DNA of 64,000 bases, from the NCBI RefSeq assembly GCF_003334335.1, contig NZ_QOWQ01000011.1, one strand, 5' to 3'. Position numbers and translations under genes: made by a program. Shown here one piece after another: positions 1 to 54,670 of this stretch; within the stretch, counting starts at the first letter, position 1; the number at the start of each line of letters is the position of its first letter. Under the pieces are notes generated by a model. It saw nothing but the letters and a program-made list of their open reading frames with translations, was not told where the DNA came from and searched no databases. The stretch comes from Escherichia coli. Lineage in GTDB: Bacteria; Pseudomonadota; Gammaproteobacteria; Enterobacterales; Enterobacteriaceae.

Positions 1-456
1 AGTACGGATTTGGGGACGAAAAACACATCGTCGTTTGATTACGGAACCAAATCCACGAATAACACCGGGGCGCATACCCATAGTATTAGCGGGACTGCAA
101 ATAGTGCCGGTGCGCACCAACACAAGAGTTCCGGTGCATTTGGTGGCACGAACACGAGCATTTTCCCTAATGGTTATACCGCGATTTCAAATCTAAGCGC
201 GGGGATTATGAGCACAACAAGCGGTAGTGGCCAGACTCGTAATGCAGGGAAGACATCATCAGATGGTGCTCATACCCACTCGCTGTCCGGCACTGCTGCA
301 AGCGCAGGCGCACATGCACATACTGTCGGTATTGGTGCTCATACGCACTCCGTTGCGATTGGCTCACACGGACACACCATCACCGTTAACGCTGCTGGTA
401 ACGCGGAAAACACCGTCAAAAACATCGCATTTAACTATATTGTGAGGCTTGCATAA
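1..456 (+). CDS. stf: Phage side tail fibre protein, C-terminal part (5' end outside window)
   Basis: Open frame from base 1 with no upstream stop. Gly/Ser/Thr-rich with repeated GAHTHS / GAHAH / GSHGH motifs, like the His-x-His motifs of T4 gp37 and lambda Stf distal fibres. Its stop overlaps the start of the next gene. Confidence 0.7.
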
Positions 457-1037
457 TGGCATTCAGAATGAGTGAACAACCACGGACCATAAAAATTTAT
501 AATCTGCTGGCCGGAACTAATGAATTTATTGGTGAAGGTGATGCATATATTCCGCCTCATACAGGTCTGCCAGCAAACAGTACCGATATTGCACCGCCAG
601 ATATTCCGGCTGGCTTCGTGGCTGTTTTCAACAGTGATGAGTCATCGTGGCATCTTGTTGAAGACCATCGGGGTAAAACAGTTTATGACGTGGCATCAGG
701 GGACGCGTTATTTATTTCTGAACTCGGCTCATTACCGGAAAATGTTACCTGGTTATCCCCGGAAGGGGAGTTTCAGAAGTGGAACGGCACAGCCTGGGTG
801 AAGGATACGGAAGCAGAAAAACTGTTCCGGATCCGGGAGGTGGAAGAAACAAAAAACAGCCTGATGCAGGTAGCCAGTGAGCATATAGCGCCGCTTCAGG
901 ATGCTGTGGATCTGGAAATCGCAACGGAGGAAGAAACCTTGTTGCTGGAAGCCTGGAAAAAGTATCGGGTATTGCTGAACCGTGTTGATACGTCAACTGC
1001 ACAGGATATTGAATGGCCAGTAGCACCTATAGGGTAA
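456..1037 (+). CDS. tfa: Phage tail fibre assembly protein
   Basis: 193 aa ORF starting at the ATG that overlaps the fibre gene stop (TAATG). The sequence resembles Tfa-family chaperones of lambdoid and P2-like phages. Confidence 0.75.
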
Positions 1038-1895
1038 ATTCGTAATGATTACCTAAATACGTTATTCTTTTGTTCAAAAAGTGATTTTGCTATAGATAGG
1101 GAGTATGTTCTTGGATTAAGAATAAAAATCGCCATGAAAGAGCTTCATGGCGAGTACATAAACGTACAAAATGTGATGAAAGTAGAGTGGCGTAAGCCAC
1201 TATATTAAGATGTGACAATAGCGAAGAAAAGTAAATAACATTTTATGGACGTTTAATTGTTAATTATAAAAACTAGAGTGCCCGATATTGTTTACCTTGC
1301 TTTAAAATAATGTACTCAAACCAAATTTTTGAGCTAAAAGCTCAAATAATATAAATGCAATAATAATGTTTAATAAGACAATTAGCTTGCTTTGTATTTT
1401 CATTTCGGAATACTGTTAAGTAACTTTGATGACCCTAACAATAGATCGGAATTTTCTTAGAGTCAATGGTCACTGTTTTTGCTTGCAAAGCAAATGTTTT
1501 GGTGGTTATAAGTTGTCTTAATATAGTCACGCATGCAACTTGTTCCATGCGGAGATTAAAGATTGGAATATAACGCTAAGATGGAATTAAATTACATTTG
1601 CAATAATCAATTTATTATTACTCAATAATTACCGATATTATTATTGTAAATTAATCATTAGAGTGCAAAAAGAAATGTAACGGCAAAATAAGAGGACGAT
1701 AGCTGAGAAAAAAGCGTGCTTTCCCAATCTGGGGCAAATCACGTCTGAATGACACCTGAAAACAGGTGGTAGCCTCAAGAAGGCTTGGAATATTCTTCTT
1801 TAATGTTATGTAATTCATTGATTTTTCGTGTACGATTTAAAGACATTTATTCCAAGAAAAATTTTTAACTCTTTGATTTTTCGACTCTGTATCAT

Positions 1896-1957
1896 CGGTC
1901 TCGAAAACCGGAGTAGGGGCAACTCTACCGGGGGTTCAAATCCCCCTCTCTCCGCCA
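1896..1957 (+). tRNA. 3' fragment (about 62 nt) of tRNA-Ser(CGA) (serU-like): anticodon stem, variable arm, T arm and acceptor 3' strand ending CCA. Not a complete tRNA.
   Basis: CGGTCTCGAAAACCGGAGTAGGGGCAACTCTACCGGGGGTTCAAATCCCCCTCTCTCCGCCA matches the 3' two-thirds of E. coli serU as I recall it. The 5' acceptor strand and D arm are missing; upstream sequence is unrelated AT-rich DNA. Confidence 0.7.
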
Positions 1958-2541
1958 CTTTATCAATGACTTATCTCCCGACTTCCCGCCTTGCTTTTCC
2001 TAAACAGAACAATCGTAGAATATTCTTGAAGGGTTAGATCGTCACTGTTTTCTGTTCGATACTGTGACATTCAGCACTTGATTCGCTATGGATCTGACAG
2101 GAAGGTTTTGAGCGAAAATTTGCAGTTATTCAGTCGTTTTCTTATCGGTCACCATTATTCTTTTAGACATTGATCCTACAAAGCTGCCGCAAAGTTGGTG
2201 GTGGGAACTGAAGTTGCGTAGAGAAGGGGTCAATACCCGGAGGCAAACATGGGCTGGCAAAAGTGTAGCGGTATTAGGCGCAGCTATTTAGCCTAGTTAT
2301 GTTTTATGAAAACTTGATATCATATAAGTGTCTTACTTATTGGCTGTAAATAAGTTTTTCCTAAGGAATTGTTTCTTGAGTATCATTTGTAACTGTAACG
2401 GAATTTATAATCCTTTGCTTTATTGTTACGGTATTTTTTATCACACCCTATTTTTTATGTGGTTTTTTATACTGAAGTTTGGCAAAGTGAACTTTATATG
2501 CATATACTTCATCCTGGTTTCAGTTAAGTTGGGTGGATGAT

Positions 2542-3285
2542 ATGGCAACTACATGTTCAGTTATATTGATTTTGGAGTCCTTTGATGTTTATTTCGGAAA
2601 AGAGAGTGTGTTTCTGGAGAGAGGTTCATCTGTACTTGTCGACTCTAGCTCTAGAGATTTTTTCCTGACATATCCTGAAAGAGTGATAGTGGCGGATTTT
2701 GGCGCTGAGTTTATTAGTCGCTATTTGAAAGCTAATAACTTAAGGGATATTTCTGATTGTAGGGAATATCCATCTTATTTAAAAATAAACTTTGCTGACT
2801 TCAGTTTAATTAAAGGATTAATTAGTTGGGCTAATCACTGTGCTGAATACATAGAAATTTTTGATGAGTCTATTGCTTTTACATGTCTCTCTGCATTTTC
2901 TTCTGAAAAACAATTTGGAGTATTTCTGTTTGAATGTTTGAAAAGCACAGGGGCTAAAGTTAAAACGATTATTCATACGGATTTATCTGCACCATGGCGT
3001 CTTAAGGATATATCATCAAGATTATATCTCAGCGAAAGTTTACTAAAGAGGAAATTGAAAGAAGAGGGGGTATCATTCAGTAAGATCATACTTGATGAGA
3101 GGATGCAAATGGCTGAATATTTACTCAGCACTCGTTGTTATCCTATTAGTAAAGTAGCTAAGGTCTGTGGTTATGCCAGTGTCTCATACTTTACTTATGT
3201 ATTTAGACGTTATTTTGGTGTTTCTCCAAGTCAATACTCTCAGAGCAGTTCAGAAAGTAAAATTCTTACTCACCAGGGAATCTGA
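2542..3285 (+). CDS. AraC/XylS-family transcriptional regulator, AppY/EnvY/Rns-like, low GC
   Basis: C-terminal helix-turn-helix region (ISKVAKVCGYASVSYFTYVFRRYFGVSPSQY) and overall similarity to prophage-borne AppY. ATG at 2542 preferred over the GTG at 2533 used by the ORF track. Confidence 0.75.
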   Translation: MATTCSVILILESFDVYFGKESVFLERGSSVLVDSSSRDFFLTYPERVIVADFGAEFISRYLKANNLRDISDCREYPSYLKINFADFSLIKGLISWANHCAEYIEIFDESIAFTCLSAFSSEKQFGVFLFECLKSTGAKVKTIIHTDLSAPWRLKDISSRLYLSESLLKRKLKEEGVSFSKIILDERMQMAEYLLSTRCYPISKVAKVCGYASVSYFTYVFRRYFGVSPSQYSQSSSESKILTHQGI

Positions 3286-3289
3286 TCAT

Positions 3290-3790
3290 TGTTCTTGCCC
3301 CCTTATTTCCAGACAGGGGGTGTATCTTAAGTTAACGTTACCCGCTGACGTCGATATTCTCGCGGAGAGCGATAACCCAACGCACTGTGCGGATGGTTTT
3401 CATTGTAATGTTCGATCGCCACTGCAAGATTATGCAATGCCGTTCTTACATTCGGTTTCGGCATGAACGCGATGTAGTCTTCCTTCATCGTTTTCACGAA
3501 CCTTTCTGCCATTCCATTACTCTGAGGACTGCTGATTGCCGTTGTGCAGGGCTCCAGATTCAACTCTCTGGCGAACTGCCATGTTTCATGCGCTCTATAC
3601 GCTGAACCGTTATCTGTCAGCCACTGGATGGACTGTTCCGGTACTTTATCGCCAAAGCGTTTTTCTATCGCTCCTAACATGACATCCTGCACTGTCGCTT
3701 TATCGTAACCTCCCGTGCTTGCGGCCCAGTCTATGGCTTCACGATCGCAACAGTCCAGGGCGAACGTAACACGCAGTTTTGAATCGCCAC
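3290..3790 (-). mobile_element. IS3-family (IS2-like) insertion sequence remnant: one terminal inverted repeat plus the 3' part of the transposase gene
   Basis: Terminus TTGCCCCCTTATTTCCAGACA at about 3291-3311 resembles the IS2 right inverted repeat. The adjacent minus-strand ORF encodes a DDE transposase C-terminus. The element is cut off near 3780-3790 by a second IS end. Confidence 0.55.
3327..3692 (-). pseudogene. Truncated IS3-family transposase OrfB (C-terminal about 120 aa only)
   Basis: Translation ends ...[20 protein letters not shown], the conserved C-terminal signature of IS3-family DDE transposases. The N-terminal catalytic region is absent. Confidence 0.6.
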
Positions 3791-4080
3791 GGGTTTAACA
3801 GACACCTCAGAGTCATTTAAGATGGCTTAAAGAGAGGTGCCCATGAGCGGTAAGCGTTATCCCGAAGAGTTTAAAACTGAAGCAGTCAAACAGGTTGTTG
3901 ATCGCGGTTATTCTGTTGCCAGCGTTGCAACACGTCTCGATATCACCACCCACAGCCTTTATGCCTGGATAAAGAAGTACGGTCCGGATTACTCCACTTT
4001 TTCATCAAGCCAATCCGCCCACCACTGCATCATTTCTCTGCGCTTATCGAGATACTGAGCGTGGTTGTAAATTCAGCTAA
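3781..4080 (+). mobile_element. Second IS3-family insertion sequence remnant: left end plus truncated orfA
   Basis: TGAATCGCCACGGGTTTAACAGACACC resembles IS3-family left ends (TGA...GTTTAAC.GACAC, as in IS600). It is followed by an OrfA-like helix-turn-helix ORF and ends abruptly before the tI/sib hairpin. Confidence 0.5.
3837..4058 (+). pseudogene. Truncated IS3-family transposase OrfA (helix-turn-helix domain intact, C-terminus degenerate)
   Basis: N-terminus MSGKRYPEEFKTEAVKQVVDRGYSVASVATRLDITTHSLYAWIKKYG is a typical OrfA helix-turn-helix. No leucine zipper, frameshift window or orfB follows. Confidence 0.6.
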
Positions 4081-4088
4081 CCCAGTGT

Positions 4089-4136
4089 GTTGACAAAAAA
4101 TTAGCGCAAGAAGACAAAAAAATCACCTTGCGCTAA
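4089..4136 (-). terminator. Lambda tI/sib-like hairpin adjacent to the att P arm
   Basis: 10-bp inverted repeat TTAGCGCAAG / CTTGCGCTAA with a 16-nt loop, followed on the minus strand by TTTTTTG. It is the reverse complement of the lambda sib/tI sequence as I recall it. Confidence 0.55.
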
Positions 4137-4138
4137 TG

Positions 4139-4300
4139 CTCTGTTACAGGTCACTAATACCATCTAAGTGGTTGATTCATAGTGACTGGATATGTTGTGT
4201 TTTGTAGCATTATGTAGTCTATTTTTTAGACTGAATAAATTATAAGTCGTTGATATTAATTGTTTTTACCGTTTCACATTCAACTTTTTTATACTAACTT
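4139..4300. other. attR: Prophage attR (lambda-type P arm, core CTTTTTTATACTAA at about 4284-4297, bacterial B' arm)
   Basis: TCTGTTACAGGTCACTAATACCATCTAAGT... closely matches the lambda P arm; it diverges toward the core. Core and downstream CTTGAGCGAAACGGGAAGG match the E. coli attB side. Confidence 0.75.
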
Positions 4301-4387
4301 GAGCGAAACGGGAAGGTAAAAAGACAAAAAGTTGTTTTTAATACCTTTAAGTGATACCAGATGGCATTGCGCCATCTGGCAGAGTGA

Positions 4388-4864
4388 TTAACTAAACATC
4401 GCAGTAATCGAGGCGCTTGCCAGAGAGTGGAAATGAACGTTAAACCCGACCATCGCGCCGCTGGCACCTTCATCGACATCAATACGTTCTATATCCAGCG
4501 CGTGAACGGTAAAAATGTAGCGATGAGTTTCGCCTTTCGGCGGTGCTGCGCCATCGTACCCGGTTTTACCAAAGTCGGTACGCGTCTGCAAAACGCCGTC
4601 TGGCATTGCTACCAGACCAGAGCCAAACCCTTGCGGTAATACGCGGGTATCAGCGGGTAAGTTAACAACTACCCAGTGCCACCAGCCGGAGCCGGTTGGC
4701 GCATCCGGGTCGTAGCAGGTGACAACAAAACTTTTCGTTCCCGCAGGAACATCATCCCACGCCAGATGCGGTGAAATATTATCGCCATCGTAACCCATGC
4801 CGTTAAAGACATGACGATGCGGCAATTTATCGCCATCGCGCAGATCGTTACTGATGAGTTTCAT
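4388..4864 (-). CDS. ybhB: PEBP-family protein YbhB
   Basis: 158 aa ORF recognised as K-12 YbhB; position next to bioA. Confidence 0.9.
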   Translation of the reverse strand: MKLISNDLRDGDKLPHRHVFNGMGYDGDNISPHLAWDDVPAGTKSFVVTCYDPDAPTGSGWWHWVVVNLPADTRVLPQGFGSGLVAMPDGVLQTRTDFGKTGYDGAAPPKGETHRYIFTVHALDIERIDVDEGASGAMVGFNVHFHSLASASITAMFS

Positions 4865-4922: not shown

Positions 4923-6212
4923 TTATTGGCAAAAAAATGTTTCATCCTGTACCGCGCGGTTAACCGCTGCGGTCAGACGCTGCAACTGTTGCGGGAGAAT
5001 AATATAGGGCGGCATCAGGTAAATCAGTTTGCCAAAAGGCCGGATCCAGACACCCTGTTCGACAAAGAATTTTTGCAGCGCCGCCATATTCACCGGATGA
5101 GTGGTTTCGACCACGCCAATGGCCCCCAGTACGCGCACATCGGCAACCATTTCGGCATCACGGGCGGGGGCAAGTTGCTCGCGCAGCTGTACTTCAATAT
5201 CCGCCACCTGTTGCTGCCAGTCGCCAGATTCGAGAATCGCCAGGCTGGCGTTTGCTGCCGCGCAGGCCAGCGGATTGCCCATAAAAGTTGGCCCATGCAT
5301 AAAGCAACCGGCTTCACCGTTACTGATGGTTTCTGCAACCTCGCGCGTGGTGAGTGTGGCGGAAAGGGTCATTGTGCCGCCGGTTAAGGCTTTACCGAGG
5401 CACAAAATGTCCGGCGCGATTTCTGCATGTTCACAGGCAAACAGTTTCCCGGTACGACCAAATCCAGTGGCGATCTCGTCGGCAATCAGCAAGATACCTT
5501 CGCGATCGCATATTTTGCGGATTCGTTTTAACCATTCCGGATGGTACATGCGCATCCCGCCTGCGCCCTGGACAATCGGCTCAATGATCACCGCCGCGAT
5601 TTCATGACGATGCGCCGCCATCAGGCGGGCAAAGCCCACCATATCGCGCTCATCCCATTCGCCATCCATGGGGCTTTGCGGGGCGGGAGCAAACAGGTTT
5701 TCTGGCAGGTAGCCTTTCCACAGACTGTGCATTGAGTTATCCGGATCGCACACCGACATCGCGCCAAAGGTATCGCCATGATAACCATTGCGGAAGGTCA
5801 GAAAACGCTGGCGCGCTTCGCCTTTGGCTTGCCAGTACTGCAACGCCATTTTCATCGCCACTTCCACCGCTACGGAACCGGAGTCCGCGAGAAAAACGCA
5901 CTCCAGCGGTTGCGGCGTCATCGCCACCAGTTTGCGGCACAGCTCAATGGCTGGCGCATGGGTGATACCGCCAAACATCACATGCGACATGGCATCAATT
6001 TGCGACTTCATCGCCGCATTAAGCTGCGGGTGATTGTAGCCGTGGATCGCCGCCCACCAGGACGACATACCGTCAACCAGGCGTCTGCCGTCAGACAAAA
6101 TCAGCTCGCAACCTTCGGCGCTCACCACCGGATAAACCGGCAGAGGGGAGGTCATGGATGTGTATGGGTGCCAGATATGGCGTTGGTCAAAGGCAAGATC
6201 GTCCGTTGTCAT
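4923..6212 (-). CDS. bioA: Adenosylmethionine-8-amino-7-oxononanoate aminotransferase
   Basis: Start set at [14 protein letters not shown] (429 aa); the ORF track extends 37 codons upstream into the bio operator. PLP aminotransferase class III. Confidence 0.93.
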
Positions 6213-8490: not shown

Positions 8491-9232
8491 TAAACAAGCC
8501 ATTGCAGCGGCATTTGGTCGGGCAGCCGCACACTATGAGCAACATGCAGATCTACAGCGCCAGAGTGCTGACGCCTTACTGGCAATGCTTCCACAGCGTA
8601 AATACACCCACGTACTGGACGCGGGTTGTGGACCTGGCTGGATGAGCCGCCACTGGCGGGAACGTCACGCGCAGGTGACGGCCTTAGATCTCTCGCCGCC
8701 AATGCTTGTTCAGGCACGCCAGAAGGATGCCGCAGACCATTATCTGGCGGGAGATATCGAATCCCTGCCGTTAGCGACTGCGACGTTCGATCTTGCATGG
8801 AGCAATCTCGCAGTGCAGTGGTGCGGTAATTTATCCACGGCACTCCGCGAGCTGTATCGGGTGGTGCGCCCCAAAGGCGTGGTCGCGTTTACCACGCTGG
8901 TGCAGGGATCGTTACCCGAACTGCATCAGGCGTGGCAGGCGGTGGACGAGCGTCCGCATGCTAATCGCTTTTTACCGCCAGATGAAATCGAACAGTCGCT
9001 GAACGGCGTGCATTATCAACATCATATTCAGCCCATCACGCTGTGGTTTGATGATGCGCTCAGTGCCATGCGTTCGCTGAAAGGCATCGGTGCCACGCAT
9101 CTTCATGAAGGGCGCGACCCGCGAATATTAACGCGTTCGCAGTTGCAGCGATTGCAACTGGCCTGGCCGCAACAGCAGGGGCGATATCCTCTGACGTATC
9201 ATCTTTTTTTGGGAGTGATTGCTCGTGAGTAA
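8477..9232 (+). CDS. bioC: Malonyl-ACP O-methyltransferase
   Basis: Start set at [17 protein letters not shown] (ATG 8477), overlapping the bioF 3' end. SAM methyltransferase motif DAGCGPG. Confidence 0.92.
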
Positions 9233-12540: not shown

Positions 12541-12637
12541 CCTGATGCGCTACGCTTATCAGGCCTACATTTTCTCCGCAATATATTGAATTTGCGCGGT
12601 TTGTAGGCCGGATAAGGCGTTCACGCCGCATCCGGCA
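12541..12637. repeat. Composite REP unit (two opposed REP palindromes around a shared spacer)
   Basis: CCTGATGCGCTACGCTTATCAGGCCTAC ... CAATATATTGAATTTGC ... GTAGGCCGGATAAGGCGTTCACGCCGCATCCGGCA. Confidence 0.85.
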
Positions 12638-13823: not shown

Positions 13824-13883
13824 AAAGTGTGGATGGTAAAAATCTCATTTACACGCTAGTATCGGCATAACCACTAAACACTC

Positions 13884-13998
13884 TAGCCTCTGCACCTGGG
13901 TCAACTGATACGGTGCTTTGGCCGTGACAATGCTCGTAAAGATTGCCACCAGGGCGAAGGAAGAAATGACTTCGCCTCCCGTATCTGGAAAGGTGTAC
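13884..13998 (+). ncRNA. Moco (molybdenum cofactor) riboswitch-like leader of moaA; boundaries approximate
   Basis: A conserved Moco RNA motif is known directly upstream of moaA in E. coli. Placed by position; I did not check the fold. Confidence 0.5.
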
Positions 13999-14988
13999 AT
14001 GGCTTCACAACTGACTGATGCATTTGCGCGTAAGTTTTACTACTTGCGCCTGTCGATTACCGATGTGTGTAACTTTCGTTGCACCTACTGCCTGCCGGAT
14101 GGCTACAAACCGAGCGGCGTCACCAATAAAGGCTTTCTTACCGTCGATGAAATTCGCCGGGTTACGCGCGCCTTCGCCAGTCTGGGCACCGAAAAAGTGC
14201 GCCTGACAGGAGGAGAGCCGTCTTTACGCCGCGACTTTACCGATATCATCGCCGCTGTGCGGGAAAACGACGCTATCCGCCAGATTGCGGTCACAACCAA
14301 TGGTTACCGTCTGGAACGCGATGTGGCGAGCTGGCGCGATGCGGGACTTACTGGCATTAACGTCAGTGTCGACAGTCTGGACGCCCGCCAGTTTCACGCT
14401 ATTACCGGGCAGGATAAATTCAACCAGGTCATGGCAGGGATTGATGCTGCATTTGAGGCCGGTTTTGAGAAGGTCAAAGTCAATACCGTGCTGATGCGTG
14501 ATGTTAATCATCACCAGCTCGACACCTTTCTGAACTGGATCCAGCATCGCCCTATCCAGCTGCGTTTCATCGAACTGATGGAAACGGGCGAGGGCAGCGA
14601 GCTCTTCCGTAAGCATCACATCTCTGGTCAGGTTCTGCGTGACGAGCTACTGCGTCGCGGCTGGATCCACCAATTACGTCAACGCAGCGACGGTCCCGCG
14701 CAAGTCTTTTGCCATCCAGATTACGCCGGAGAGATTGGCCTTATCATGCCGTATGAAAAAGACTTCTGCGCCACTTGCAACCGCCTGCGCGTTTCCTCCA
14801 TTGGTAAACTCCATCTCTGCCTGTTTGGTGAAGGCGGCGTTAACCTGCGCGATCTGCTGGAAGACGATACCCAGCAACAGGCGCTGGAAGCGCGTATTTC
14901 AGCGGCGCTGCGGGAGAAGAAACAGACCCATTTCCTGCATCAAAACAACACCGGTATTACGCAAAACTTATCGTACATTGGCGGCTAA
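13999..14988 (+). CDS. moaA: GTP 3',8-cyclase (radical SAM)
   Basis: Start set at [31 protein letters not shown] (329 aa). Confidence 0.95.
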
Positions 14989-16740: not shown

Positions 16741-16838
16741 ATTTCACCGCTCAGTACATACGTTTACGCTGCGTCGATGCACAGCCTCATCATTTTGCAG
16801 TATCCTTAAGATATTCCTTATATCTTCAGGAGATCGTC

Positions 16839-17543
16839 ATGGACAGATTCCCACGTTCTGATTCAATCGTACAACCCCGGGCTGGCTTGCAAACTTATAT
16901 GGCTCAAGTCTATGGCTGGATGACCGTTGGCTTGTTGCTGACCGCATTTGTTGCCTGGTATGCGGCTAATTCCGCGGCCGTGATGGAGCTGTTGTTCACT
17001 AACCGTGTCTTTTTAATCGGTCTGATCATCGCGCAATTAGCATTGGTTATTGTGTTATCAGCGATGATTCAAAAGCTGAGCGCAGGTGTAACGACGATGC
17101 TCTTTATGCTTTATTCGGCGCTGACGGGTCTTACGCTTTCCAGTATATTCATTGTCTATACCGCTGCTTCTATCGCCAGTACTTTCGTCGTTACTGCCGG
17201 GATGTTCGGCGCAATGAGCCTGTACGGTTACACCACGAAGCGCGATTTAAGTGGCTTTGGCAATATGCTGTTTATGGCGTTAATCGGCATTGTGCTGGCA
17301 TCGCTGGTCAACTTCTGGTTGAAAAGCGAAGCATTGATGTGGGCAGTTACCTACATCGGCGTGATTGTCTTTGTCGGATTGACGGCGTATGACACGCAGA
17401 AACTGAAAAATATGGGTGAGCAGATTGATACCCGCGACACGTCGAACCTGCGCAAATATTCCATTCTTGGCGCGTTAACCTTGTATCTGGACTTCATCAA
17501 CCTGTTCCTGATGTTGTTGCGGATCTTCGGCAACCGCCGTTAA
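16839..17543 (+). CDS. ybhL: BAX inhibitor-1 family inner membrane protein
   Basis: 234 aa, multi-pass hydrophobic, recognised. Confidence 0.9.
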   Translation: MDRFPRSDSIVQPRAGLQTYMAQVYGWMTVGLLLTAFVAWYAANSAAVMELLFTNRVFLIGLIIAQLALVIVLSAMIQKLSAGVTTMLFMLYSALTGLTLSSIFIVYTAASIASTFVVTAGMFGAMSLYGYTTKRDLSGFGNMLFMALIGIVLASLVNFWLKSEALMWAVTYIGVIVFVGLTAYDTQKLKNMGEQIDTRDTSNLRKYSILGALTLYLDFINLFLMLLRIFGNRR

Positions 17544-17747
17544 TTCTTTTTCACCATCACTATCCCGGCCATGTGTCGGGATTTTTTTCTTACTAAAAAC
17601 GACACTTAACAAGTACCAGGTATAAAATATGCCTTATGGACGAGCGGAAGCGTTTTCTGTATCCATAAATGCAAAAGTATTTTGTATGCGTGGTTTTAAA
17701 TTTATTGATGGTGAATATTAATATTTTTTCTAAGGATAACTAAAAGA

Positions 17748-18461
17748 ATGGAATCATACTCGCAAAACAGCAATAAATTAGATTTTCAGCACGAGGCCAG
17801 GATATTAAACGGTATATGGCTCATTACCGCTTTAGGTTTGGTGGCAACCGCAGGACTAGCCTGGGGAGCTAAGTATCTCGAAATTACGGCAACCAAATAT
17901 GATTCACCACCAATGTATGTCGCCATAGGGTTATTATTACTTTGTATGTATGGCTTAAGTAAGGATATCAACAAGATAAATGCCGCCATCGCGGGCGTAA
18001 TATATCTGTTTTTACTCTCTTTGGTGGCGATTGTCGTTGCAAGTTTAGTTCCTGTATATGCCATTATCATCGTGTTCAGCACTGCGGGCGCGATGTTTTT
18101 AATCAGTATGCTGGCCGGTTTATTATTTAATGTTGATCCTGGTTCTCACCGTTTTATCATTATGATGACGTTGACAGGGTTGGCCCTGGTAATCATCGTG
18201 AATGCGGCATTAATGAGTGAACGGCCCATTTGGGTAATAAGTTGCTTAATGATTGTGTTATGGCCAGGCATTATCTCGCATGGACGAAATAAGCTCCTTG
18301 AACTGGCAGGAAAATGCCATAGTGAAGAGTTGTGGAGTCCGGTTCGTTGCGCTTTTACAGGTGCATTAACACTCTATTACTATTTTATCGGCTTCTTTGG
18401 GATACTTGCCGCGATAGCTATAACGCTTGTCTGGCAAAGGCATACGCGTTTTTTTCATTAG
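17748..18461 (+). CDS. ybhM: BAX inhibitor-1-like inner membrane protein
   Basis: 237 aa, hydrophobic, lower GC than neighbours. Confidence 0.85.
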   Translation: MESYSQNSNKLDFQHEARILNGIWLITALGLVATAGLAWGAKYLEITATKYDSPPMYVAIGLLLLCMYGLSKDINKINAAIAGVIYLFLLSLVAIVVASLVPVYAIIIVFSTAGAMFLISMLAGLLFNVDPGSHRFIIMMTLTGLALVIIVNAALMSERPIWVISCLMIVLWPGIISHGRNKLLELAGKCHSEELWSPVRCAFTGALTLYYYFIGFFGILAAIAITLVWQRHTRFFH

Positions 18462-18496
18462 TCGTAAATGCAGATACTAAAGAACTTAACTGAACT

Positions 18497-19453
18497 TCAC
18501 ATCGCCGCTTCATTTTTCGCTCGTAGCTTTTTCGCCTGGCTTTCCAGCAACAGGTAACAGATCAGCGCCAGCAGCAGTGGGATAAAGTAATACAGCACAC
18601 GGTAAGCGAGCAGGGCGGCGATAATTGTGCCTTTGGTGATATGCTCCCCAGCCAGTAGCGCGATAAACACCGCTTCCAGCACACCAATTCCCGCCGGAAT
18701 ATGCACGATGACGCCTGCAATACTACTAACCAGCAACACGCCCAGTACAAAGAAATAGTTAACGCTTTGACCAAGTAACAGCCAGATAATCGCCCCCATT
18801 ACCATCCAGTTAACGCTGGAAATCAGCATCTGGGCGAGGGCGAATTTCCATGAAGGCAGTACCAGCTTTTGCCCTTTAATGGTCATATGGCGGTGCTTCG
18901 CGAAAGCGCAAAACCACAAATAAACCGCGATAATCATCAGTAAGCCAATGCCGAGAATACGCAGCGTAGTTTGATCGACATACCAGTGATCCGGCAACTC
19001 CACCACGCCTGCGGTAAAGATAATCCCCGCCAGTAAAATATAGCCCAGCCAGTTGGTGGTGATACTGAGCGAGAAAATCCGCGTAATAGTGCTACCGGGC
19101 AACCCCAGACGAGAGTACAAACGATAGCGCATACCAATGCCGCCGACCCAGGTACTGAGTGTCAGGTTGAAGGCGTAGCAGATAAACGACACCAGCATCA
19201 CCTGGCGCTTCGCCAGTTTGTGACCGCAGTAAAAGCGGGCGAGCAGGTCATAGCAGCCGTAAATCAGATAACTGACGACCACCAGCCCGACCGCACTGAG
19301 CAGCGCAACGCGATTGTAGTCACGGATGACCTTCCAGACCTCTTCCCAGTCCACCTTTTTGGCGTAGACCACCAGCAACACAATCACCGCGATAAAAAAC
19401 AGCCAGGTGAGGATCTTCTTTGCTAAGCGCCAGCGCGGGTGTGATTTACTCAT
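18497..19453 (-). CDS. ybhN: Inner membrane protein with lysylphosphatidylglycerol synthase-like transmembrane region
   Basis: 318 aa; its start overlaps the clsB stop. Confidence 0.88.
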   Translation of the reverse strand: MSKSHPRWRLAKKILTWLFFIAVIVLLVVYAKKVDWEEVWKVIRDYNRVALLSAVGLVVVSYLIYGCYDLLARFYCGHKLAKRQVMLVSFICYAFNLTLSTWVGGIGMRYRLYSRLGLPGSTITRIFSLSITTNWLGYILLAGIIFTAGVVELPDHWYVDQTTLRILGIGLLMIIAVYLWFCAFAKHRHMTIKGQKLVLPSWKFALAQMLISSVNWMVMGAIIWLLLGQSVNYFFVLGVLLVSSIAGVIVHIPAGIGVLEAVFIALLAGEHITKGTIIAALLAYRVLYYFIPLLLALICYLLLESQAKKLRAKNEAAM

Positions 19454-29244: not shown

Positions 29245-29341
<97 letters not shown>

Positions 29342-34494: not shown

Positions 34495-34617
34495 CTGGAC
34501 GTAGCGTAAACGCCTGATCCGTCCAACGGTTCGGATTTTGTAGGCCTGATAAGACGCGGTAGCGTCGCATCAGGCATCTGTTGCCGGATGCGGCGTAAAC
34601 GCCTTATCCGTCCTACG
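34495..34617. repeat. REP cluster between ybiC and ybiJ
   Basis: Several REP palindromes (GTAGGCCTGATAAGACGCGGTAGCGTCGCATCAGGC, CCGGATGCGGCGTAAACGCCTTATCCG). Confidence 0.8.
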
Positions 34618-54571: not shown

Positions 54572-54670
54572 CCTGATGCGCTACGCTTATCAGGCCTACG
54601 CAGTACCTGCAATATATTGAATCTGCAGGACTTTGTAGGCCGGATAAGGCGTTAACGCCGCATCAGGCAT
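54572..54670. repeat. Composite REP unit, third copy in the same orientation as 12541-12637
   Basis: Same architecture and spacer (CAATATATTGAATCTGC). Confidence 0.85.

Follow-up and report, generated by a model that had tools for sequence, protein, structure and literature searches.

Why does the 3′ part of a chromosomal serine tRNA gene lie among the cargo genes of a prophage that occupies a different attachment site? The question arises near one end of a 64,000-nt stretch of Escherichia coli DNA (the window), where a sequence-only reading had described a 62-nt 3′ copy of a serU-like tRNA gene ending in CCA. That reading took the copy for the fossil attachment site of a second, unrelated integrative element inside a prophage at the lambda site, and proposed that it could seed recombination with the real serU locus. 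Our analysis indicates that the fragment is very probably the core of an attR captured from the serU locus, which is now phage cargo and was inherited here from a phage that integrates at the lambda site.

The serU fragment and its two flanks

The gene order of the window follows that of K-12 (ybhB, bioA, bioBFCD, uvrB, and a Moco riboswitch with moaA), and over its first 5 kb it matches strain RM10410 at 100%. There, a DLP12-like defective lambdoid prophage of about 19 kb lies between ybhC and ybhB. It is bounded by attL (B-O-P′) and attR (P-O-B′) with lambda-type core and arms, which bears out its earlier assignment to the lambda site. Just upstream of the window (16810-19057 of the retrieved locus), the RM10410 prophage has a truncated large-terminase gene fused to a truncated tail-fibre gene, showing that the whole head and tail region was deleted. 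Its cargo includes an ompC/nmpC-like porin gene and bor. Among RNA family matches, the Rfam sRNA candidate IS009 was found at full length within tfa (799-997, plus strand, 218 bits). The Moco riboswitch (13867-14011, upstream of moaA) is ordinary for this chromosomal region, as are four matches to REP-associated sRNA families (ES036/CssrF and naRNA4/CssrE; 12561-12602, 29265-29307, 34543-34613, and 54592-54634). Features of the prophage end and its chromosomal border are collected in Table 1.

Table 1. Features from the left end of the window to the first chromosomal gene beyond the prophage
Feature	Position	Strand	Basis
Tail-fibre gene, 3′ part (start lies before the window)	1-456	+	"phage tail protein, partial" in RM10410
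tfa, tail fibre assembly gene	456-1037	+	annotation
P arm, "P1" type, non-coding, AT-rich, of serU-integrating lambdoid phages	1038-1895	+	likeness to serU prophage attR arms
serU′ core (O) of fossil attR, chromosomal version	1896-1957	+	62/62 identity to K-12 serU
B′, native chromosome downstream of serU toward yodB, 278 bp	1958-2235	+	contiguous with complete serU in K-12
IS630-family (ISEc33-like) remnant, last 56 bp	2236-2291	+	98% to 3′ end of IS630-family copies
AraC-family regulator gene, PatE-like	2542-3285	+	annotation, translation
IS3-family (ISEc48-like) transposase remnant	3327-3779	-	"integrase core domain, partial"; matches IS3-family copies
IS3-family orfA N-terminal remnant	3843-3989	+	annotated partial transposase
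intS stub, last 27 codons, 84 nt	3989-4072	-	translation IYNHAQYLDKRREMMQWWADWLDEKVE followed by stop
Active lambda-type attR	4130-4297	+	P arm from about 4130, core ACTTTTTTATACTAA at 4283-4297, then attB right arm
ybhB	4388-4864	-	beyond attB right arm

The 62-mer (CGGTCTCGAAAACCGG...CTCTCTCCGCCA) occurs once in the 64-kb window, without mismatch, against a chance expectation of 0 matches over 100 shuffles. It is identical to nucleotides 29-90 of K-12 serU, the gene for tRNA-Ser(CGA), and runs from the second base of the anticodon stem to the CCA end. Upstream of the fragment, only 1 of 28 positions matches the 5′ part of serU. ARAGORN called no tRNA gene across the 64 kb, and an Rfam scan of the window gave no tRNA at the gathering or E ≤ 10 thresholds, with only spurious sub-threshold tRNA-like hits at the site itself. 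The fold of the 90 nt ending at CCA lacked an acceptor stem. The fragment thus falls short of a complete cloverleaf with 5′ acceptor strand and D arm. Both the identification as a unique 3′ copy of serU and the expectation that no complete tRNA would be found here were confirmed, and the match to tRNA-Ser holds up when aligned with the K-12 gene. For annotation, this accounts for an orphan pseudo-tRNA that one might otherwise take as marking the edge of an island.

The fragment had been said to sit alone in AT-rich DNA. Its left flank is indeed AT-rich (28-34% GC over 1051-1800), but it is not alone, as identity to the serU locus extends 278 bp past the CCA. Alignment with K-12 defines a shared segment of 340 bp (1896-2235, 97.4% identity) that comprises the serU 3′ part and the first 278 bp of the serU-yodB spacer. 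Homology to the serU flanks of K-12, APEC, and ST131 stops at position 2235 in every case. Of 5,426 complete E. coli genomes, 3,855 have an empty site in which a complete serU is followed directly by this flank, and the best of these match the window allele at 99.4% over a 518-nt test query.

The other side of the fragment comes from a phage. The right end of a serU-resident prophage in APEC E12049 matches positions 251-2235 without interruption, at 97%. The core-proximal 195 bp (1701-1895) adjoin serU′ in many genomes and are common to many serU prophages, including that of ST131. Over its final 110 bp, the arm shows no difference from the attR arm of APEC E12049 and two from that of ST131. 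The segment at 1040-1614 is also found behind tfa in ydfJ prophages.

Prophages at serU itself provided the reference for this arrangement, serU being a well-known prophage site (e.g. in STEC; PMC7067040, PMC8767318). The occupied site of APEC E12049 reads mtfA, complete serU, int, xis ... J, stf, tfa, P arm, 62-nt serU′, flank, and zinT. Its int lies 28 bp downstream of serU in convergent orientation, while its right end consists of J, lom, stf, tfa, and an 858-bp spacer. As in the window, tfa precedes the P arm at genuine serU attR sites, and the boundary of the window fragment coincides with the core boundary at these sites. In GenBank KU052038 ("phage SerU-LTIIb"), the identical 62 nt are annotated as a pseudo tRNA-Ser at the attR of a serU prophage, beside yodB.

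Three side observations concern these occupied sites. The serU gene rebuilt at attL of APEC E12049 (9020-9109 of the retrieved locus) carries an A:U to G:C change in its long variable arm relative to K-12. As the change is supplied by the prophage, the tRNA-Ser(CGA) gene of such lysogens differs slightly from that of non-lysogens. In a second class of occupied serU sites, the attR repeat begins only about 14 nt from the tRNA 3′ end, indicating that a different element family, with a crossover at the 3′ end, also uses serU. Finally, the serU-type integrase genes of APEC E12049 and strain 2013C-3264 are both 1,051 bp and both annotated as frameshifted, which may reflect either a real defect common to both or an artefact in the way this integrase family is annotated.

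The variable arm allowed the two versions of the core to be told apart. The 3′ part at attL of APEC E12049, which the phage supplies, bears compensatory A>G and T>C changes that are absent from both its attR and the window. The window fragment has the A..T pair of the chromosome, as opposed to the G..C pair of the phage-supplied copy. We also considered whether the 278-bp flank could be the P′ arm of a serU phage, and rejected this as the two share no similarity. With native serU flank on its 3′ side and the chromosomal base pair in its variable arm, the unit is the displaced host copy and not an attP. This revises the earlier view of the fragment as an element's own copy of its attachment site.

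In summary of its anatomy, the core is the 3′ part of the tRNA gene, its 3′ side is native flank, and its 5′ side is a phage P arm. The unit is a complete attR junction of the serU system (P-O-B′), in which the core is the host's displaced tRNA end. No serU-type integrase gene, P′ arm, or complete serU gene was found in the window, and the prophage is bounded by lambda-type attL and attR with a lambda-type int. Lacking a paired attL or cognate serU integrase within a prophage whose ends are lambda-type, the fragment is an orphan attR.

Could it instead be an attP, belonging to a second integrative element that lies inside the prophage? The attP of elements targeting tRNA genes does include such a tRNA part, and the left arm is a genuine P arm. 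However, the right side is host chromosome rather than a P′ arm, no integrase gene lies next to it, and the variable-arm pair is the chromosomal rather than the element-derived version. True P-core-P′ junctions look different, and the attλ layout of the window is absent from P-core-P′ places among the matches listed. We regard an attP as highly unlikely. The fossil-site part of the sequence-only reading is therefore supported, as the relic of a second, serU-specific integration system within a lambda-site prophage. Its description of that second element as unrelated or nested is not. The DNA to the left (251-1895) is the tail-fibre and tfa end plus P arm of serU lambdoid phages, contiguous with the prophage's own late genes, and is accompanied by neither a serU-type integrase nor a P′ arm.

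Distribution and probable origin of the block

Beyond the host flank, an illegitimate junction at 2235/2236 joins B′ to an IS630 remnant. This junction is the same in every module copy examined, and the join was therefore a single event. Over the 340-bp unit, module copies share 98.8-100% identity with one another, compared to 97.0-97.6% with four genuine flanks.

The AraC-family gene that follows shares >99% DNA identity with a gene in the thrW prophage of O157:H7, where PatE (z0321, OI-8) is encoded. PatE of O157:H7 is an activator of acid-resistance genes, described as an acid-resistance and LEE regulator. K-12 AppY occupies the same position in DLP12, and its protein is 29% identical. DLP12 and appY were rejected as a source, given this low identity and the lack of DNA homology beyond tfa.

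At the far end of the block, the translation of the intS stub is identical to the C-terminus of the intact, argW-adjacent IntS of 2013C-3264, and homology to that locus ends at 4072. The stub reads as the relic of a third integration module, abutting the lambda-type P arm. The proposal of a mosaic region is thus upheld and extended by one more relic. As judged from this stub, the lambda-att phages would have received the block from an argW-type phage, a direction of transfer that the sequence suggests.

We then asked where else the structure occurs. The wastewater phage ev099 matches positions 1-4301 of the window collinearly at 98.3%, a stretch that begins in the tail-fibre genes and ends at the attP core; beyond the core, ev099 continues into int and xis. 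Three phages, ev099, mEp332, and PhiR70_1, carry positions 1040-3290 at ≥99.1% identity. Each contains the P arm, the core, and the 278-bp host flank, as expected of specialised transduction, and each has the fragment beside an AraC-family gene, the very combination that the sequence-only reading had suggested searching for. In the 5,426 complete genomes, the segment 1400-2600 was contiguous in 97, from varied hosts, while the AraC part (2236-3700) was present in 643. The exact AraC protein was found at ybhB-bioA in 10 of 10 contexts, at equal spacing from tfa and with differing upstream tail-fibre genes. The structure thus did not arise in this chromosome, and was inherited from lambda-att phages such as ev099.

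This distribution bears on whether the junction is instead a strain-specific scar, left where the attλ prophage recombined, or underwent inversion, with a serU prophage resident in the same chromosome. Recombination between prophages, including inversion, is well documented in E. coli (PMC8112680), and the fragment is inverted relative to the real serU (plus strand in the window, in K-12 gene order; minus strand in K-12). However, the same block is present in three sequenced phage genomes and the 97 complete genomes above. Moreover, the host flank ends after 278 bp with ybhB-bioA following normally, and the identical strain RM10410 has no second P1 arm. A local scar is accordingly very improbable.

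Beyond the lambda site, the block was found in two other integration contexts. In O157:H7, a thrW prophage matches positions 1896-3763 at 99.3%; the block lies at its right end, bordered on the outside by a 45-nt thrW′ fragment. The left neighbour differs there, being an arm with a GIY-YIG gene and 180 bp. This arm is the genuine serU P arm of a P27/e14-like myovirus prophage, which forms a true serU attR in seven genomes (e.g. MB15). The sequence upstream of patE in O157:H7 is thereby accounted for, and patE can be seen to move as one block among lambda-att, thrW, and argW phages. In O157:H7 strain TB21-1, the 45-nt thrW′ (8805-8848 of the retrieved locus; anticodon loop to CCA) separates the PatE prophage from a P4-like satellite. 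The satellite encodes an ABC-three-component system, and the two form a tandem array at thrW.

At argW, the P1 arm, block, and intS occur together in NCTC9064 (99.7%) and in five genomes with an internal deletion. With the GIY-YIG arm, the block lies inside a complete KplE1-like prophage (C7 and C3). The intS genes at these argW copies are intact or frameshifted, and the argW/IntS prophages that carry the module belong to two morphotypes. Overall, three P arms are joined to one module. P1 and P2 are found at genuine serU attR sites, while P3 was seen only in 2013C-3264. A related boundary was observed in an ssrA prophage of strain E18 (5966-5985 of the retrieved locus), where the GIY-YIG arm continues for 19 nt into the serU anticodon stem-loop (GGACCGGTCTCGAAAACCG). 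The sequence then diverges into Dcm-type methyltransferase and restriction endonuclease cargo, with the breakpoint exactly at the expected crossover.

We propose that a lambdoid phage would have integrated into serU of some E. coli to form the attR. Crossover by a tyrosine recombinase in the anticodon loop would have moved the 3′ part of the host tRNA gene, together with the DNA downstream, to the opposite prophage end. There, 278 bp past serU, one illegitimate join would then have connected it to an IS630 remnant upstream of the PatE-like AraC gene. The block so formed (tfa, P arm, serU′, 278 bp, IS630′, AraC, IS3′, IS′, and intS stub) has moved as cargo next to the att site of temperate phages whose integration modules are of other types. 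From one of these, a lambda-att phage of the ev099/mEp332 type, the defective prophage of the window inherited it. Carrier phages have changed integration module more than once since the capture, and the intS stub and lambda att adjoin the junction.

None of the 5,426 complete genomes had an intermediate in which the AraC module sits at the true serU locus (chimeric query, ≥80% coverage). In view of this, the route of capture, either aberrant excision or recombination between prophages, is one that we infer. The same count bears on the suggestion that the fragment could seed recombination with the real serU. The expected product occurred in none of the 5,426 genomes, which argues against ongoing exchange.

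A further alternative is that the fragment has been kept for a role as RNA, whether as a tRNA-like element, a tRNA-derived small RNA, or a sequence that leads or insulates the AraC gene. The 62 nt are perfectly conserved across most copies of the window type. The anticodon, variable, and T hairpins can still fold, and the 90 nt leading to the CCA gave a z-score of -2.7. However, the entire module, non-coding flanks included, is ≥98.8% identical across copies. The conservation of the fragment therefore reflects recency.

The fragment has also changed in three lineages, by a point change in mEp332, a TT>GG double substitution in the T-loop in O157 TB21-1, and a 1-nt deletion in the T-stem in strain E8. 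In two attλ variants, IS1 deletions (window 1786-2335 and 1786-2528) removed the fragment while the AraC gene was kept. These prophages, of strains MLI023K2 and Res13-Lact-PER02-33, carry IS1A at the equivalent of window position 1785, with adjacent deletions to 2335 and 2528. AraC-gene variants with other left boundaries were considered as ancestral forms and rejected, since they derive from IS1 deletions starting at 1785.

The best promoter-like site for the AraC gene (2479-2508) lies downstream of both the fragment and the IS630 remnant, and the promoter scan gave no such site closely upstream of the fragment. Maintenance for an RNA function is thus hardly credible. By these sequence comparisons, the fragment appears to make no tRNA and to be dispensable. 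Descent from a decayed phage-encoded tRNA gene can be dismissed almost entirely: lambdoid prophages often carry tRNA genes (e.g. the clusters in APEC E12049 and 2013C-3264), but these sit downstream of Q and not beyond tfa, whereas this sequence is identical to host serU, continues into host flank, and is truncated at the att core boundary of genuine serU attR sites.

Possible re-use of the fossil site by serU phages

A captured attR is a chromosome-derived attachment sequence within a prophage or phage genome, and could in principle serve as a target for integration. The one in the window is still complete in structure as a recombination site for serU-type integrases. In the window itself, the site is not occupied by another phage. 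A test query composed of P arm, core, and P′ reached ≥80% coverage in only one genome, that of strain 2013C-3264, with about seven more at the 80% borderline. Phage vB_EcoS-689R5 is one example in which core, P′, and int occur together.

The locus in 2013C-3264 lies between torI-dsdC and intS-argW. From the left, prophage X runs to stf, tfa, and P1. Next come the phage version of the core, P′, a serU-type int, and xis, then prophage Y (with espJ and tccP) and P3. The chromosomal version of the core, the 278 bp, IS630′, AraC, IS remnants, intS, and argW follow. These junctions are the reciprocal products expected from integration of Y into the fossil site of X, and the SNP pair in the core segregates accordingly. 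Un-nested relatives with P1, module, and intS were found in at least six genomes, compared to none with P3 and module. Both insertion flanks were closest to the un-nested relative, at 98.9% and 99.6%. Based on this map, a serU-type phage probably used an equivalent fossil site as a landing pad at least once, in one other strain (n = 1). Strain C7 was considered as a second nested case and rejected, as only one prophage is present there, complete and KplE1-like, and the module is an integral part of it.

Homologous recombination offers two other routes to these arrangements. A P1-type serU phage that entered a resident prophage by Campbell-type homologous recombination could have produced the map of 2013C-3264. 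The distance from the left core edge to the first SNP is 19 nt, which is very short for a homologous crossover. Likewise, P arms could have been exchanged at the core by recombination within the 340 bp common to genuine attR sites, rather than by an integrase. The frameshift flags on the serU-type integrases of APEC E12049 and 2013C-3264 also count against use as a landing pad.

Taking this together, the probability that the fossil site is or was integrase-competent seems to be about one half. A broader proposal is that the phage-borne serU attR acts as a working, portable secondary att site for serU-type integrases, and that it also shuffles the PatE block between unrelated phages. We put this forward tentatively, rating it a shade lower than competence itself. 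If true, integrase-mediated exchange at the core would explain how three P arms and three or four integration modules came to surround one monophyletic junction. serU phages would also be able to lysogenise by way of other prophages, stacking effector phages like the espJ/tccP phage of 2013C-3264. An active site would add a tRNA-derived member to the known attB-in-prophage sites, and would suggest that such sites originate by capture of an attR.

Comparison with known systems

Transducing phages of the lambda bio type carry a P-O-B′ hybrid att site together with adjacent host DNA. The block in the window resembles them in that a phage genome includes the right prophage junction with neighbouring host DNA. 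In contrast to these phages, it keeps only 278 bp of host DNA, joined to an IS remnant, and is a passenger beside another, active integration module. Moreover, aberrant excision is in this case a putative route.

The closest relatives of the junction itself are the attR sites of serU prophages (KU052038; PMC7067040, PMC8767318), which share the identical 62-nt pseudo tRNA-Ser, a related P arm, and the flank toward yodB. Those sites are at the serU locus, paired with an attL and a serU-type integrase, while that of the window is orphaned at the lambda site with its flank cut at 278 bp.

As for the cargo, the PatE locus of O157:H7 in CP-933H (OI-8) and appY in DLP12 likewise place an AraC-family gene beyond the tail-fibre genes, beside the att end of a defective prophage. 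In O157, the leader of serU′, 278 bp, and IS630′ is present as well. This copy differs in its GIY-YIG-type serU P arm, its active site at thrW, and its mutated fragment. K-12 DLP12 is more distant, with AppY at only 29% identity and no homology to the fragment region.

Finally, prophages of STEC are known to integrate into other prophages by means of chromosome-derived attB-in-PP sequences (Nakamura et al. 2021, PLoS Pathog, PMC8112680), and the phenomenon of a prophage within a prophage is also cited in a study of O121:H19. The published attB-in-prophage sites trace back to yecE, ykgJ/ecpE, and ompW; their identity to the chromosome is 81-87%, and they show linkage to T3SS effector loci (PMC8112680). 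That paper makes no mention of serU, tRNA, AraC, or argW. Common to those sites and ours are a chromosome-derived att sequence near the cargo end of a prophage, spread by recombination, and occupancy by another phage (here probable, in the one case of 2013C-3264). Unlike them, the window site is derived from a tRNA gene and is 97-99% identical to the chromosome. It also keeps its P arm, and with it a whole attR (P-O-B′), is linked to a PatE-like gene, and is found in sequenced phage genomes.

Because the attR is preserved in full, P arm included, and has diverged little from the chromosome, it directly reveals its mode of origin. With a right prophage junction and 278 bp of chromosome preserved at 97-99%, the site is an unusually legible record of how temperate phages acquire host DNA and cargo. 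The window element fits best among the attB-in-prophage sites, as one more of their kind, and is also a natural analogue of the P-O-B′ sites of transducing phages.
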